The notes: generated by a model from the letters alone, not told the origin. Counted from the first letter of the stretch, positions 16,728 through 42,234 are shown. The stretch is DNA of 64,000 bases from Sphingobacteriaceae bacterium (GCA_013824115.1 PNNG01000027.1:20425-84424), one strand, 5' to 3'. Translations and numbers: made by a program.

Positions 16728-16950
16728 GCTTATGTATGGTTGAATTTTTTGGCAATAAAAAAAGGGTAAGCTACTTGCATCGCACCGCTACAACCACCTA
16801 CCCTTGCTGTATTCCTACCCTGGGGGATTTAGCAGGAGCTGGTCGTACAAGACTTACCCTCGGCCGCAAAGGTAAGGCTAATTTTGTTTGATGCAGCGAG
16901 GCGTTTGAAAAAGCTTCATTAGGGTGTTGAGCAGCATGATTTGATAAAAA

Positions 16951-18700: not shown

Positions 18701-20329
18701 ATGAACCTCGAATTCAACCGCAACGAAGACGAATACAAGCAGCTGCTCTACAAATACAAGCGCAAACACGACCAGGTGAAGCTGGGTGGGGGCGAAAAAG
18801 CTATTGCCAAGCACAAAGAAAAAGGCAAGATGACCGCCCGCGAACGCATCGATGCTTTGCTTGACCCCGGTGCGCCATTTGTTGAAGTAGGTGCCTTGGC
18901 CGGCGATGGCATGTATGCCGAGCATGGTGGTTGTCCCTCAGGTGGCGTGGTGGTAATATTGGGCTACATACACAAGCGCCTCTGCGTGGTGGTAGCCAAC
19001 GATGCCACGGTAAAGGCAGGGGCCTGGTTCCCCATCACAGGCAAAAAGAACCTGCGTGCCCAGGAAATTGCCATGGAAAACCGACTGCCCATCATCTACC
19101 TGGTTGATTCTGCCGGCGTTTACCTGCCCATGCAGGATGAAATTTTCCCGGACAAGGAGCATTTTGGCCGCATTTTCCGCAATAATGCGCGCATGAGCAG
19201 CGATGGTATCGTGCAAATTGCAGCGGTCATGGGCAGTTGTGTGGCGGGCGGAGCTTACCTGCCCATCATGAGCGATGAAGCCTTGATTGTAGACAAAACG
19301 GGCAGCATCTTTTTGGCAGGTTCGTACCTGGTAAAAGCGGCCATTGGCGAAGACATCGACAACGAAACCCTGGGCGGCGCTACCACGCACTGCGAAATTT
19401 CGGGGGTTACCGATTACAAAATGCCCGACGACAAAACCTGCCTCGAAACCATCCGCAAGCTAGTGTCGAAGCTGGGCAAAACCGCCGATGCCGGTTTCGA
19501 CCGCATCAAACCTGCTATGCCCAAGAAGGACATGAACGAAGTCTACGGCATCTTCCCGGAGGGCAATGCCAAGCAGTACGATGTGGTAGAAATCATCGAG
19601 CGCTTGGTCGACGATTCGGAGTTCACCCAATATAAAGAAGGCTATGGCAAAAGCATCGTCTGCGGTTATGCACGGGTAGATGGCTGGGCCGTGGGCATTG
19701 TAGCCAACCAGCGCAAGGTGGTGAAAAGCAAAAAAGGGGAGATGCAGTTTGGCGGGGTGATTTACAGCGACTCGGCCGACAAAGCCACGCGTTTTATTGC
19801 CAACTGCAACCAGAAAAAAATTCCGCTCGTGTTTTTGCAAGATGTAACCGGCTTCATGGTCGGCTCACGATCAGAGCACGGCGGCATTATCAAGGACGGC
19901 GCCAAAATGGTGAATGCTGTTTCCAATTCGGTGGTGCCTAAATTCACCATTGTGATGGGCAACAGCTACGGTGCAGGCAATTACGCCATGTGCGGAAAGG
20001 CCTACGATCCGCGCCTCATTTACGCCTGGCCAACGGCCCGCATGGCGGTGATGGGCGGTGAGCAAGCAGCCAAGGTGCTGTTGCAAATCCAGGTAAGCTC
20101 GGCCAAAGCCAAAGGCGAAGTCATTACGCCCGAAAAGGAAGCCGAATTGCTCAAGGAAATCACCGACCGATACACCCACCAAACCTATCCCGAATACGCT
20201 GCGGCTCGTTTGTGGGTAGATGGCATCATCGATCCGCTAGAAACCCGCAAGGTGATCAGCATGGGCATTGAAGCGGCCAACCAGGCGCCTATTGAGCGGG
20301 CGTTCAATTTGGGTGTGTTGCAGGTTTGA
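18701..20329 (+). CDS. Acyl-CoA carboxylase carboxyltransferase subunit (propionyl-CoA carboxylase beta / methylmalonyl-CoA decarboxylase alpha family)
   Basis: 542 aa with tandem crotonase-like carboxyltransferase halves. N-terminus NLEFNRNEDEYKQLL...ARERIDALLDPG.F.E.G is typical of PccB/MmdA. Confidence 0.85.
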   Translation: MNLEFNRNEDEYKQLLYKYKRKHDQVKLGGGEKAIAKHKEKGKMTARERIDALLDPGAPFVEVGALAGDGMYAEHGGCPSGGVVVILGYIHKRLCVVVANDATVKAGAWFPITGKKNLRAQEIAMENRLPIIYLVDSAGVYLPMQDEIFPDKEHFGRIFRNNARMSSDGIVQIAAVMGSCVAGGAYLPIMSDEALIVDKTGSIFLAGSYLVKAAIGEDIDNETLGGATTHCEISGVTDYKMPDDKTCLETIRKLVSKLGKTADAGFDRIKPAMPKKDMNEVYGIFPEGNAKQYDVVEIIERLVDDSEFTQYKEGYGKSIVCGYARVDGWAVGIVANQRKVVKSKKGEMQFGGVIYSDSADKATRFIANCNQKKIPLVFLQDVTGFMVGSRSEHGGIIKDGAKMVNAVSNSVVPKFTIVMGNSYGAGNYAMCGKAYDPRLIYAWPTARMAVMGGEQAAKVLLQIQVSSAKAKGEVITPEKEAELLKEITDRYTHQTYPEYAAARLWVDGIIDPLETRKVISMGIEAANQAPIERAFNLGVLQV

Positions 20330-20370
20330 GCTTCTTTCAACCATAATCGGTAAGCCGGATTTGTTTATAT

Positions 20371-20583
20371 TTGATTATGAATTTGCAGGAACGAAAAATC
20401 GCACTCATTCATTGGCTCACGGAGGTGGAAGATGAAGAGTTGCTGGAGCAAGTAGAAAGCCTCCAGCAAAATTCATTGTCTTTACCTTCTAAAATTGAGC
20501 AATTATTGGAGATGTCAGCCAAAACACCGGCTGCCGATTGTATTGCTCACACCTCCATCAAGGACCTGCTTCGGAAAGCATGA
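20371..20583 (+). CDS. Putative antitoxin partnering the downstream ParE/RelE-like toxin
   Basis: 70-aa acidic protein. Its stop overlaps the toxin start by 4 nt (ATGA). Confidence 0.5.
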   Translation: MIMNLQERKIALIHWLTEVEDEELLEQVESLQQNSLSLPSKIEQLLEMSAKTPAADCIAHTSIKDLLRKA

Positions 20584-20885
20584 AAAGTTTGATTTGGACG
20601 CCAATTGCGTTAAAGTCACTTCAAGAAACCGTCGATATCCTAGAAAGTCAATGGTATTCGCTCGTGGTTGATGAATTCATTGATAGTATAGAGCAAAAGC
20701 TCATTTTGGTTCAATCAAACGCAGCGTTAGGCCCCAAAATAGGCGCGGGAGAAATCCGCCGGATCCTGTTGCATCCACATATCTCGCTTTTTTACCAAGA
20801 TGAAGCAAGTCACATCAAGATTTTGCTGGTTTGGGATAACAGGCAAAATCCGGATACACTGTTTGAAAAGCTGGTCTCTCAATAA
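20580..20885 (+). CDS. Type II toxin-antitoxin system toxin, RelE/ParE family
   Basis: About 100 aa: MKSLIWTPIALKSLQETVDIL...GEIRRILLHPHISLFYQ...IKILLVWDNRQNP matches the ParE/RelE fold pattern of Bacteroidota TA toxins. Confidence 0.65.
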   Translation: MKSLIWTPIALKSLQETVDILESQWYSLVVDEFIDSIEQKLILVQSNAALGPKIGAGEIRRILLHPHISLFYQDEASHIKILLVWDNRQNPDTLFEKLVSQ

Positions 20886-21064
20886 TTCGTTGATCTCGGT
20901 AGTGACAAGTAATAAAGCCCTTCTTACGGCCATGGAATTGAATATGTTCCGTTCGCTCCAATGAGCAATGTCATTAATTTGAGTTCGAATGGCATGTTGA
21001 CTTTACTTCACAGCGAGCATTTGGGTGGTGCGACCCCCTCGGGGTCGATTTAATCACGTGAACA

Positions 21065-21199
21065 TGATATTTCTATAAACATGGCACCCCCTCGGGGTGC
21101 TTTGATTTGGTAAATACCAAATTCACAGCCTGAGTCCAACATTAACCGATTGAGGGTAATTCCAATGACCCCAAGGGGGTCATACGTTTATAGAAATCA
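21065..21199. repeat. MITE-like 135-bp element bounded by ~19-bp imperfect terminal inverted repeats, containing nested GC-core hairpins
   Basis: Left TIR TGATATTTCTATAAACATG (21065-21083) against right CATACGTTTATAGAAATCA (21181-21199). Internal palindromes GCACCCCCTCGGGGTGC, ATTTGGTAAATACCAAAT and TGACCCCAAGGGGGTCA. Confidence 0.4.
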
Positions 21200-21326
21200 A
21201 TGCACCAACCATATAATTCGACCCTGAATGGGTCGCACCAGGCTCGGCAGCAGCTTGACCGCCATTCCTTATCTTATTGACATGCCCCAACGGGGCTTAG
21301 GTCCTCTAGGAGATGCGATGCATCTC

Positions 21327-21348
21327 TTTTAGCACGAACGTGCTAAAA
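21327..21348. terminator. Palindrome overlapping the corA stop codon; candidate terminator, preceded by a second hairpin at 21310-21327
   Basis: TTTTAGCACG-AA-CGTGCTAAAA is a perfect 10-bp stem. The adjacent hairpin is GGAGATGC-GAT-GCATCTC. Confidence 0.4.
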
Positions 21349-22275
21349 CCAACGAACCCTCTTGAACAGCAGGTAAACCCCGGAAATAATCACGACACTC
21401 GCCCCCAGCACCACATAAAACGCATTGCCCGATTCTTGTCCGGGCAGCGGAATGTTCATGCCGTACAAGCTGGCGAATAGGGTAGGAATGGCCAAACAAA
21501 TGGTTACAAACGTAAGGGTTTTCATCACGTTGTTCATGTTGTTGTTGATCACCGAAGAGTAGGCTTCCATCATTTGTCCCAATACCCGAATGCTGATATT
21601 GGTCATTTGAATGGCCTGTTGGTTTTCAATCATCACATCTTCCAATAAATCGTCGTCTTCTTCCCAGGCCGCAAAAATGCGCAGACGACGCAAACGCTCC
21701 ATCATGGCGCCGTTGGCTTGCAAGGCGGTGGTGTAGTAAATGAGGGCCTTTTCGTATTTGAGCAACTCCATGATTTCGCGGTTACGCAAGGAGTTCTCCA
21801 ACTCATCTTCCAACCGCTCTACAATTTTGTTTATGTTGCGTAGGTGTAAGAGGTATTTGCTGGCGGTTTTGAGCATCAGTTGCAGCAAAAACTTGTTCTT
21901 TTTGCCCGTACTGAAGCCTTTTACCCGCTCTTTGATGAACTCCTGAATAATCACATTTTCCTCTTTGCAGATGGTGATGGTCATGCTGTCGGTAAGGAAA
22001 ATCATGAGGGGAATGGTGGTGAAAGGCGTATCGTGCTCTACCCCGCGGAAGTGCGGCAGACGGATGACCACCAAGAGGTAATCGTCTTCCTTTTCTACAC
22101 GCGACAGTTCGTCGATGTCGAGCGAGTCGGTGAGGTATTCGAGTACGAGTGGACAGTTTTTTTCAATCCATTCGCGCTCTTCAAAAGTAGGGTCCACAAT
22201 GTTTACCCATGTGCTGTCGCCCAAGGCTTCTACCTCGTACAATTGTGCTTTGCTGGTTTGAAAAAGCTGAATCAT
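21343..22275 (-). CDS. corA: Magnesium/cobalt transporter CorA
   Basis: C-terminal two-TM region carrying the YGMNIPLPG (GMN) signature. 310 aa. Confidence 0.9.
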   Translation of the reverse strand: MIQLFQTSKAQLYEVEALGDSTWVNIVDPTFEEREWIEKNCPLVLEYLTDSLDIDELSRVEKEDDYLLVVIRLPHFRGVEHDTPFTTIPLMIFLTDSMTITICKEENVIIQEFIKERVKGFSTGKKNKFLLQLMLKTASKYLLHLRNINKIVERLEDELENSLRNREIMELLKYEKALIYYTTALQANGAMMERLRRLRIFAAWEEDDDLLEDVMIENQQAIQMTNISIRVLGQMMEAYSSVINNNMNNVMKTLTFVTICLAIPTLFASLYGMNIPLPGQESGNAFYVVLGASVVIISGVYLLFKRVRWF

Positions 22276-22410
22276 GACTGAAAAATGTGTGGTTACCCGG
22301 CCCGTGCTGCCGTCGCAAAAATAGCTTTTTATCGGTCAAAACAAAGCGCTTTGGGCATTTTGTTTTCTCAATTGGCAGCTTACCGACAAACAAAGCGAAC
22401 GGCTTTTTTG

Positions 22411-22418
22411 TAGTTTTG
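22411..22418 (+). promoter_or_regulatory. Putative -7 promoter element (TAGTTTTG, matching TAnnTTTG) upstream of hutU
   Basis: Lies 22 bp upstream of the ATG at 22440. Confidence 0.3.
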
Positions 22419-22439
22419 TGACATTCAAAATCTGTCTTT

Positions 22440-24122
22440 ATGTCAACGCTTTCTACCGCAAAACTGAACATGGCCGAACATCCAACGCCCACCGGAACGC
22501 AACTCAATTGCAAAGGCTGGGTGCAGGAAGCGGCTTTGCGCATGTTGCACAACAACCTCGATCCTGAAGTGGCCGAGCGCCCCGAGGACCTGATTGTGTA
22601 CGGCGGTCGCGGTAAAGCCGCCCGCAACGTAGAAGCATTTGAGTTGATTGTGAAGGCTTTGAAAGATTTGAACGAAGACGAAACCCTGCTCGTGCAAAGC
22701 GGCAAACCGGTGGGCATTTTGCCTACCCACAAAGACGCTCCCCGGGTGGTGATTTCGAACTCTATGTTGGTGCCGAATTGGGCCAATTGGGAGCATTTTG
22801 ATGAGCTCGACAAAAAAGGACTGATGATGTACGGCCAAATGACGGCCGGTAGCTGGATTTACATCGGTTCGCAAGGCATTGTACAGGGTACCTACGAAAC
22901 CTTCAATGCAGTAGCCGACAAACACTTCGGCGGTTCGCTCAAAGGCAAACTTTGCGTGACGGCCGGTTTAGGAGGCATGGGTGGCGCTCAGCCCTTGGCC
23001 ATCACCATGGCCGACGGTGTGTGCTTGGCCGCAGAAGTAGAGGAGTGGCGCGCCCAAAAGCGTGTAGAAACCCGCTACCTCGATTTGATTGAACACGACA
23101 TCGACAAAGCCATTGACCTGGCACTTGATTTTTGCAAAAAAGGCGAGAATAAGAGCATCGGCGTGATTTGCACCGCCGTTGATTTGCTCGATCGCCTCAA
23201 CCAGCGCGGTATTGTACCCGATGTACTCACCGACCAAACCTCAGCCCACGATCCATTGGTGGGTTACATTCCACAAGGCATGACCAACGAGCAGGCCAAC
23301 GTATTGCGTGAAGCCGACCAGGAGGCCTACCTCAAAGCTGCCTATGCTGCCATGCGCCGCCATACCGAATTGATGGTGGAGCTGCAGGCCAAAGGCGCCA
23401 TCACCTTCGATTACGGCAACAACCTCCGCGGCCGCGCCCTCGAAGCCGGTTATACCCACGCTTTCGATTTCCCCGGTTTTGTACCCGCTTATATCCGCCC
23501 ACTTTTCTGCGAAGGCAAAGGTCCGTTCCGCTGGGCAGCCCTTTCAGGCGATCCTGAAGATATTCGGGTAACCGACGAGCTCATGCTCGAGCTTTTCCCC
23601 AACGACAAAGGCCTGCACCGCTGGATCAAAATGGCACAAGAACGCATTGCTTTCCAGGGTTTGCCGGCACGTATTTGCTGGATTGGTCAAGGCGACCGTG
23701 AAAAAGCTGGTTTGGCCTTCAACGAATTGGTACGCACAGGTAAGGTTAAAGCGCCCATTGTAATTGGCCGCGACCACCTCGATACCGGCTCGGTGGCTTC
23801 ACCCAACCGCGAAACCGAAGCCATGCTCGACGGTTCTGACGCCGTTGCCGACTGGCCAGTGCTCAACGCCCTCATCAATACTGCCGGCGGCGCCAGCTGG
23901 GTAAGCTTGCACCACGGCGGTGGGGTTGGCATGGGTTACTCCATCCACTCAGGCATGGTGATCGTAGCCGACGGCACCGACGATGCAGCCCGCCGCCTCA
24001 AGCGTGTGCTCCACAACGACCCCGCCATGGGTGTTATCCGCCACATGGATGCCGGCTATGACATTGCTAAGGATACGGCGCGGAAGCACCGGTTGGATAT
24101 CAGGGAGAGGTTGAAGAGTTGA
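22440..24122 (+). CDS. hutU: Urocanate hydratase
   Basis: 560 aa. The N-terminus and its internal NAD-binding Rossmann region are conserved throughout, as in urocanases. Confidence 0.95.
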
Positions 24123-42159: not shown

Positions 42160-42234
42160 GGTGAAAGACCGGGTTCGAACCGGCGACCTCTAGTGCCACA
42201 AACTAGCGCTCTAACCAGCTGAGCTACATCCACC
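42160..42234 (-). tRNA. tRNA-His (anticodon GTG) with encoded G-1
   Basis: Minus-strand sequence folds as a cloverleaf: acceptor GTGGATG, D-arm GCTC-AGCTGGTTA-GAGC, anticodon arm CTAGT-TTGTGGC-ACTAG (GUG), T-arm GCCGG-TTCGAAC-CCGGT. An extra 5' G pairs with discriminator C73. CCA is not encoded. Confidence 0.85.

Follow-up and report, generated by a model that had tools for sequence, protein, structure and literature searches.

The intergenic spacer between convergent genes for a ParE-family toxin and for CorA was analysed in a Sphingobacteriaceae bacterium (GCA_013824115.1, PNNG01000027.1:20425-84424), in a stretch of 64,000 nucleotides which is called the window throughout. The spacer is dense in hairpins and very probably consists for the most part of one 320-bp non-coding miniature inverted-repeat transposable element (MITE) of an IS4/IS1675-type insertion sequence (IS), located at 20966-21285. 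As an old IS1675-like MITE the feature is of a known kind and ordinary in itself, and it is the interior that is unusual. The interior is not derived from the IS and is made of units which resemble repetitive extragenic palindromes (REPs), arranged as two inverted doublets. Each unit carries a 13-nt box, TTTCTATAAACAT, next to a GC-rich hairpin, and these box-plus-hairpin units form a separate REP-like family, which is apparently, and provisionally, undescribed. The explanation as a whole, an IS1675-type MITE with a REP-like interior, is in our opinion probable.

Architecture, copies and autonomous partner of the element

The ends of the element are inverted repeats of the form 5'-CAATG...CATTG-3' (CAATGTCATTAA...), outside which lies a decayed, putative 9-bp target-site duplication (TSD), and the list of open reading frames (ORFs) contains none of at least 40 aa inside 20966-21285. 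These boundaries replaced a first version (GCAATG...CATTGC with a 7-bp TSD) because of the comparison with autonomous copies and with IS1675. The parts of the element, including its terminal inverted repeats (TIRs), are given below in window coordinates, with the strand where one was assigned.

20966-21285: whole non-autonomous element (MITE), 320 bp, aligned end to end with 332-bp metagenome copies
20957-20965: left TSD, TCCAATGAG, matching 21286-21294 at 6/9 positions
20966-20983, plus strand: left TIR, CAATGTCATTAATTTGAG, identical to CAATGTCATTAAGTTAAG at 16/18 positions
21031-21047, plus strand: hairpin A, CGACCCCCTCGGGGTCG, first hairpin of the left doublet, without a box of its own, ending 22 nt before the box
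21070-21082, plus strand: box TTTCTATAAACAT, 13 nt, the left "TIR" of the initial annotation
21084-21100, plus strand: hairpin B, GCACCCCCTCGGGGTGC, second hairpin of the left doublet
21105-21122: AT palindrome ATTTGGTAAATACCAAAT, near the centre of the element (midpoint ~21125)
21166-21182, minus strand: hairpin C, TGACCCCAAGGGGGTCA, second hairpin of the right, inverted doublet
21184-21196, minus strand: box TTTCTATAAACGT, the right "TIR" of the initial annotation
21219-21235, minus strand: hairpin D, CGACCCTGAATGGGTCG, first hairpin of the right doublet, 22 nt from the box
21268-21285, minus strand: right TIR, decayed, reading CTTATCTTATTGACATGC on the top strand, matching the TIR consensus at 14/18 positions
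21286-21294: right TSD, CCCAACGGG, matching 20957-20965 at 6/9 positions
21284-21296: hairpin GCCCCAACGGGGC, comprising the TSD together with 2 nt on either side, from the element end and from the flank

Each arm is built from a TIR, about 45 nt, hairpin 1, 22 nt, the 13-nt box TTTCTATAAACAT and hairpin 2, and the two arms are inverted. The hairpin GCCCCAACGGGGC at the right junction is probably the original insertion target rebuilt and not a part of the element interior. In the end-to-end alignment of the window with a metagenome copy, identity is 78-83% in the TIRs, 79-100% in the hairpins and 77% in the boxes, against 40-62% in the spacers; the segments of hairpins A and D reach 90% and 86%, and the spacers adjacent to A 52-62%.

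The initial annotation, made from the sequence alone, had read the spacer as a MITE or a REP-like cluster, and both were right in kind, but the anatomy was wrong. It had taken as the mobile unit a 135-bp segment, 21065-21199, bounded by imperfect ~19-bp inverted repeats. That inverted repeat does exist (21065-21083 / 21181-21199), as do the two GC hairpins inside the segment, but what had been taken for TIRs is a conserved box inside the element, TTTCTATAAAC(A/G)T, which is present there twice in opposite orientations and is part of each REP-like unit. The actual element has other TIRs, a putative 9-bp TSD and an IS4-family partner, and the 135-bp segment is ruled out as a mobile element since sibling copies are homologous far beyond it and a TSD flanking it was looked for and is absent. 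By a repeat finder the ~19-bp repeat is a portion of a longer inverted pair, 21069-21108 / 21158-21197 (78%), nested within another, 21026-21052 / 21214-21240 (85%), so that hairpins A, B, C and D form the two halves of an imperfect palindrome of ~215 bp (21026-21240). The hairpin core ACCCCCTCGGGGT, with up to 2 mismatches, has 3 copies in a stretch of 150 bp; the number expected over all 64 kb is 0.93. All the palindromes that had been annotated were recovered in the sequence at positions within ±1 nt, and two of them needed a shift by one, GCCCCAACGGGGC to 21284-21296 and GGAGATGC-GAT-GCATCTC to 21309-21326.

Copies of the element were found in relatives, and loci fetched for comparison are cited here by L numbers. 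BLAST gave ~80% homology to L042 (81% over 305 bp, window 20962-21266) and partial matches to L029, which are two contigs of one metagenome-assembled genome (MAG) named "uncultured Chitinophaga sp." and have neighbour genes unrelated to those of the window. A metagenome scan with hairpin B plus flank as query retrieved copies of 332-333 bp with the same architecture on five contigs of ERZ1066127 (all at ~12x coverage) and on VFQO010005347. These copies have sharp shared ends with unrelated sequence outside, and their termini, 5'-CAATGTCATTAAGTTAAG...CTTAACTTAATGACATTG-3', are perfect inverted repeats with 9-bp direct repeats outside them. The TSD of the sibling MITE copies matches at 9/9 positions in L126, 8/9 in L130 and L131, 7/9 in L128 and 6/9 in L125. 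Homology among the copies runs past the palindromic core by ~65 bp at its left side and by 45 bp at its right. A single-copy unit with no TSD, which the initial annotation would have taken for plain terminator hairpins, is not what the relatives contain. In the 64-kb window itself no second copy of the element, the box or the hairpin type is present, and the window element would be an old, decaying copy.

Two Logan contigs from independent assemblies (L003 and L004; 189 kb and 9.7 kb), which encode an identical CorA, end inside the element at ~21079, in the left box. Near this position the window copy and L042 diverge after ~31 identical bases, and a break at ~31 shared bases is expected at a repeat in a k = 31 graph, which points indirectly to more copies in that population. 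The two contig ends are consistent with a repeat-induced break. Recognition of the MITE supplies corrected boundaries for annotation and accounts for the assembly breaks at this place.

The copies also differ in some details of the interior. L042 and L029 keep the AT palindrome ATTTGGTAAATACCAAAT, which is not retained by the ERZ1066127 subfamily. Both MAG copies have a degenerate left box (GCTATCAACAT in L042, GCTATAAACAT in L029) and an intact right box, and L029 has at 1-330 an internal partial duplication of hairpin B and the AT palindrome.

The autonomous partner was searched in viral contigs (IMG/VR) with a 19-mer TIR, composed of the 18-nt consensus and one variable outer base. The same TIR bounds elements of 1622-1653 bp in the viral contigs L136, L138 and L149, each with one ORF of 435-461 aa which is an IS4 family transposase (NF033592, 164-172 bits, cutoff 115; Pfam DDE_Tnp_1). 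It also bounds deletion-type MITEs of 210 bp in the viral contigs L134, L141 and L144 and one of 120 bp in L110 of the genome set, and the TSD matches at 9/9 positions in the autonomous elements and in the small MITEs L134 and L110. The closest named relative is IS1675 of Lactococcus, called "IS4-like element IS1675 family" in RefSeq, whose TIR is identical (CAATGTCATTAAGTTAAG; ends CCAATGTCATTAAGTTAAGG) and whose transposase is ~42% identical to those of the L136/L138-type elements; the IS1675 copy has a 10-bp duplication in a palindromic target. For the IS4 family, duplications of ~10 bp have been reported and 5'-CA ends are typical (PMC2266710). The window element shares with IS4-family MITEs and IS1675 the TIR and the 5'-CA termini, and with MITEs of this kind the non-coding content and, judged by its relatives, the dispersal; its putative duplication is of 9 bp (10 bp in IS1675). 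It differs from plain deletion derivatives of this IS, such as the 210-bp MITE of L134, in that its interior holds two inverted REP-like doublets and no IS remnant.

At another locus, L140 4806-6892, IS1675-type TIRs (one end with 2 mismatches) flank an ORF of 584 aa with N-terminal ...KPLMPT... and an HNH-like CxxC...HH region. This ORF looks IscB-like; the flanking 9-mers do not match as a duplication (2/9), so that the locus probably does not move as one unit.

Reconstructed with a single copy of the duplication, the insertion sites of these IS1675-like elements are mostly small hairpins with the 9-mer centred on the loop, an apparent preference seen over about ten sites. Hairpin- or terminator-like target palindromes with a loop-centred duplication of 9-10 bp are seen in L138, L134, L136, L110, L130 and L151. 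Among them are AGCAGGC-TTAGCG-GCCTGCT (L138), AAAGAGCC-TTTGA-GGCTCTTT (L134), GGTC...GACC (L130) and the REP-like unit GACCC-TGAA-GGGTC (L110), and the window site, as reconstructed, is GCCCCAACGGGGC, surviving at the right junction. Other ISs that target palindromes include IS1397 and ISKpn1, which insert in enterobacterial REPs, and some IS110-family elements, which insert in Pseudomonas REPs. The elements described here likewise enter hairpin centres, in L110 that of a REP-like unit, and the loop lies in the middle of the duplication; in contrast to those ISs they belong to the IS4 family with a 9-bp duplication, as seen at the ~ten sites.

The box-plus-hairpin repeat family

The family was scanned in one genome per species with the pattern TTTCTATAAACNNNNNACCCCNNNGGGGT, which is found exactly in at least 120 genome blocks across many phyla. 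Among the matches listed, most are from Bacteroidota, with all orders represented, and the others from Ignavibacteriota, Calditrichota, Zixibacteria, Marinimicrobia, Acidobacteriota, Brocadiaceae, Poribacteria and further groups. In the alignment on the match, (T)TTTCTATAAACAT is conserved and is followed by 3 variable nucleotides and then by the stem; over the family the box stands 1-3 nt from the hairpin foot. The stems vary by genome (GACCCC, CATCCC, GATGCC, GACTCC, GCGCC) with CTATAAAC kept, and many of the hairpin loops are UUCG-like. A second GC hairpin ends 14-27 nt upstream of the box in 93 of 126 cases, with a peak at 17-23 nt; the window has this doublet twice, inverted, with a spacing of 22 nt in both. 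The TIR motif lies upstream of the units in other genomes in only 1 of 136 cases and is hence no part of the generic unit. A literature search for the box sequence, in both orientations, brought up nothing relevant.

The pairing of box and hairpin does not depend on the scan pattern. Boxes outside it (with at most 1 mismatch) are followed by a perfect hairpin of at least 5 bp in 74 of 97 cases (76%), compared with 18 of 97 control windows. Across 77 units chosen without regard to a hairpin and aligned without gaps, compensatory changes occur at all 7 stem pairs, with 79 double-sided cells against 20.8 +/- 4.8 in shuffles (none of 500 reaching that number), a signal that breaks down on shifting the partners by 1-3 columns. 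G:T and A:C mismatches number 32 and 24, counts that are uninformative on the strand and on RNA versus DNA.

The units are extragenic, as 8.5% of them lie inside ORFs of at least 150 aa compared with a background of 79%. Gaps between convergent genes hold 30% of the units against 15% expected, an enrichment of about two-fold, and with respect to the gene whose 3' end they face the units show no preferred orientation (57 same, 74 opposite).

A further alternative of the initial annotation was a highly structured small RNA. Taken more widely as a structured non-coding RNA expressed from the spacer, either a small RNA or a regulatory element of a 3' untranslated region, we consider it very improbable. 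Folding is strong, with predicted energies for the 361-nt region of -141 kcal/mol on one strand and -147 on the other, compared with -99 and -107 for shuffles (z = -7.3 and -7.6, i.e. about -7.5; 0 of 100 shuffles as good), and the covarying stems and UUCG-like loops of the family would also suit an RNA. Both strands fold equally well, however, because the region is palindromic at the DNA level, and no promoter-like site was found inside the element. Rfam 15 gave no family match to the spacer at E values up to 10, with one chance match of 15.9 bits elsewhere in 20000-22500. Moreover, copies stand at unrelated loci with TIRs and TSDs, the units face gene 3' ends in either orientation, and arrays of 10-25 units occur without genes between them. 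A small RNA agrees poorly with the symmetry at the DNA level and with the dispersal.

Head-to-tail arrays of units with periods of 49, ~57 and ~60 nt were observed in L117 (Blastocatellia), L124 (Flavobacteriales) and L020. An array of clustered regularly interspaced short palindromic repeats (CRISPR) was considered for these three loci, given periods of 49-60 nt, and was rejected, as the spacers between the units are themselves repeated and the arrays are therefore tandem repeats.

Association with subclass-1.2 Y1 transposase genes and proposed origin

All ORFs of the 120 listed blocks, which had been chosen by exact motif match, were clustered against each other. The top recurrent family is a Y1 HUH transposase of ~152 aa, present in 12 of the 120 blocks and in 12 genomes, and a profile search returned exactly those 12 genes. 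Every one of the 12 genes has a unit at a distance of 175 bp or less, often of 25 bp or less, and the genes are embedded in clusters where units of both orientations occur (L124 with 25 units in 3.9 kb, L020 with 13, L057 with 9 and L108 with 7). In NCBIfam the protein scores 74.9 bits with the IS200/IS605 model NF033573 (cutoff 55) and 21.8 bits with REP_Tyr_transpos, below its cutoff of 80. It carries the motifs DH[IV]H, WQ and YI.NQKEHH, the signature of subclass 1.2 as published by Quentin et al. 2018 (PMC6006769), where subclass 1.2 is entered as "REP: no" in Table 1. Later literature was searched for repeats belonging to subclass 1.2 and none turned up, the second of these searches being too loose for a conclusion.

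From this distribution an association between the units and the subclass-1.2 Y1 genes is likely, and the units may also be the functional substrate of the Y1 protein, which is put forward tentatively. The arrangement is comparable to REPs, bacterial interspersed mosaic elements (BIMEs) and REP doublets forming hairpins (REPINs) with their REP-associated tyrosine transposases (RAYTs) in E. coli and Pseudomonas. In both, short extragenic GC-rich palindromes have a conserved motif 5' of the hairpin foot and occur as singles, inverted pairs and clusters, with dense clusters flanking a low-copy Y1 HUH gene. They differ in the motif, which here is the 13-nt box TTTCTATAAACAT at 1-3 nt from the foot and not GT[AG]G at 0-2 nt 5' of the foot, and in its range, since the box stays conserved from phylum to phylum while REPs have been called species-specific (PMC6006769). 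The associated protein is also different, being of subclass 1.2 and IS200-like and not a class-2 TnpAREP/RAYT, and the REPtron-like presence of repeats on both sides of the Y1 gene is found in other genomes and not in the window. With the subterminal hairpins of IS200/IS605 the system shares an IS200-type Y1 HUH protein and hairpins with conserved 5' sequence. In contrast to IS200/IS605, the units form arrays which flank the gene on either side and contain both orientations, instead of one left and one right end; there is no tnpB, the Y1 gene is low-copy (PMC6006769), and the window element has TIRs and a putative TSD.

It could be argued from these parallels that the window element is itself of REPIN type, i.e. 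inverted REP doublets forming a long hairpin and copied by a Y1 (HUH) transposase alone, with the IS4-like ends incidental. The ~215-bp core, 21026-21240, is indeed a nested imperfect palindrome of two inverted doublets, units do flank Y1 subclass-1.2 genes as in a REPtron, and a sibling strain has a subclass-1.2 gene in this very gap. HUH/Y1 transposition, on the other hand, makes no target duplication and needs no TIRs, whereas the sibling copies have sharp common boundaries at IS1675 TIRs with 9-bp duplications. Their homology extends beyond the palindromic core on both sides (~65 bp and 45 bp), and MITEs with the same TIRs and without the REP-like interior exist (210 bp in L134, 120 bp in L110). 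We therefore hold a REPIN-type origin to be unlikely and retain the IS1675-type MITE with a REP-like interior.

For this element the following origin is proposed. A small hairpin in the gap where the parE-like gene and corA converge would have received the MITE at 20966-21285, and an IS1675-like DDE transposase, acting in trans from a gene at another place, would have moved it. The units would serve as single-strand DNA recognition sites of the Y1 protein, with the hairpin bound and the box providing a guide or cleavage context. Insertion at hairpin centres suggests how IS ends could bracket REP-like hairpins, and in this way IS1675-type ends that target such hairpins may have come to enclose a REP-like cluster, making a chimeric MITE.

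In its widest form the proposal has two parts. Subclass-1.2 TnpA-Y1, an IS200 relative of domesticated appearance, would have its DNA partner in the units of TTTCTATAAACAT, 1-3 nt and a GC hairpin, most often paired as doublets ~21 nt apart, and the two would make up a REPtron-like system in Bacteroidota and several other phyla, with an unusually long recognition box that is conserved between phyla. IS1675-like elements inserting preferentially there would have generated chimeric MITEs which spread REP-like units by a DDE mechanism and so couple two unrelated transposition systems. We advance this as a possibility which has somewhat less than an even chance of being correct.

Several points count against the explanation given here. 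The window copy is degraded (TSD 6/9, right TIR 14/18), and among the sibling copies L042 and L129 are without a clear TSD (3/9 and 5/9). No IS4 transposase is present in the 64-kb window (best tblastn E = 0.2), and autonomous elements with this TIR are found only in IMG/VR contigs and Lactococcus plasmids, with none in the lineage of the MITE. The 64-kb window likewise has none of the Y1 genes recovered by the profile search. The link to Y1 is one of association only, and a choice of blocks by exact motif favours dense clusters; the Y1 gene of L001, which occupies the same intergenic gap in a sibling strain, has no box nearby. Neither the covariation nor the G:T and A:C counts can separate DNA structure from RNA structure, and the bracketing of REP-like units by IS ends is a conjecture.

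What specialists might find new is the link of the repeat family to subclass-1.2 Y1 genes. Bacteroidota and Cyanobacteria commonly encode Y1 HUH proteins of subclass 1.2, which have been published as having neither associated DNA structures nor IS behaviour, and the box-plus-hairpin near their genes is a concrete candidate substrate for binding and cleavage. If the proposal is true, it would bring the IS200-like branch, and also the Fibrobacterota-Chlorobiota-Bacteroidota (FCB) group, within the REP/RAYT paradigm, and it would be a case of one transposon family (IS4) targeting and mobilising the repeats of another.

The content of the intergenic gap is exchanged between strains with identical CorA, as seen from the comparison of window 20330-21342 with L001 3934-5788 and L002. 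The window, L003 and L004 carry an antitoxin, the ParE-like toxin and the MITE, and L001 and L002 carry a subclass-1.2-type Y1 gene (150 aa) and ORFs of 68 and 173 aa without family match. The divergence begins exactly at the stop codons of the pccB-like gene and corA, the corA stop also differs (TAG versus TGA), and in the sibling contigs a protein with a type IX secretion system (T9SS) tail adjoins corA. This protein, the type of the small SRP RNA given below and the occurrence of the closest element copies in a Chitinophaga MAG all place the source in Bacteroidota. As a local source of the boxes the Y1 gene of L001 is ruled out, since no box lies within the L001 locus. An integron attC site or cassette array was considered, because the gap varies between strains and holds a toxin-antitoxin pair; on reading, without a dedicated search, the R'/R'' core GTTRRRY / RYYYAAC gave no fit. 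A different Y1-type ORF (176 aa, ...LENHLHFIA...) was noticed in L009, a Methylocucumis MAG (678-1023 and 103-630), beside three copies of TCACTGCCATTAAGTTAAG, a sequence that shares the inner 12 nt of the IS1675 TIR.

Flanking genes and terminator-like hairpins

The flanks of the spacer are as initially annotated. The ParE-family toxin gene lies at 20580-20885 on the plus strand and the CorA gene at 21343-22275 on the minus strand, and the toxin gene is preceded by a 68-aa partner, the two sharing an ATGA overlap (Pfam assignments). Exact look-ups of the toxin and PccB proteins of the window returned no record. From the toxin stop up to the element, over 80 bp, no notable structure is present. 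On the corA side three hairpins (21284-21296, 21309-21326 and 21327-21348) lie outside the element or straddle its end, and two of them are additional to the features listed above.

21309-21326, minus strand: hairpin GGAGATGC-GAT-GCATCTC, a local hairpin in the folds, outside the element in the corA 3' region
21327-21348, minus strand: perfect 10+10 palindrome TTTTAGCACG-AA-CGTGCTAAAA, 22 bp, enclosing the corA stop codon, outside the element

These two are most simply understood as corA 3' hairpins. The first may have a terminator or mRNA-stabilising role, and the second may act as the corA terminator.

By extension, all the hairpins of the spacer might simply be intrinsic terminators that serve the toxin gene and corA, which converge here, without any mobile history. 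Such a reading draws on the position between convergent genes, with 21309-21326 and 21327-21348 immediately after the corA stop, and on the family-wide excess of units in convergent gaps. A terminator-like scan adds to it, since hairpin B followed by TTTGATTTGG passes on the plus strand. Hairpin B passes the scan on the other strand too, and the 2.1 kb scanned hold 6 terminator-like sites against 2.4 +/- 1.5 in shuffles. What terminators leave unexplained is the 13-nt box, exact in at least 120 genome blocks, the four-fold symmetric layout with ~80% homologous copies at unrelated loci, and the IS1675 TIRs with target duplications. Terminators without mobile history are thus an improbable account of the spacer, and a terminator role would be secondary only. 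As such a secondary role it is possible for the hairpins of the MITE, and the four stable hairpins between convergent genes may also work as bidirectional terminators.

At gathering score, the only Rfam matches in the 64-kb window are a Bacteroidales-type small signal recognition particle (SRP) RNA at 16760-16866 on the minus strand (106 bits) and a tRNA at 42160-42233, also on the minus strand.

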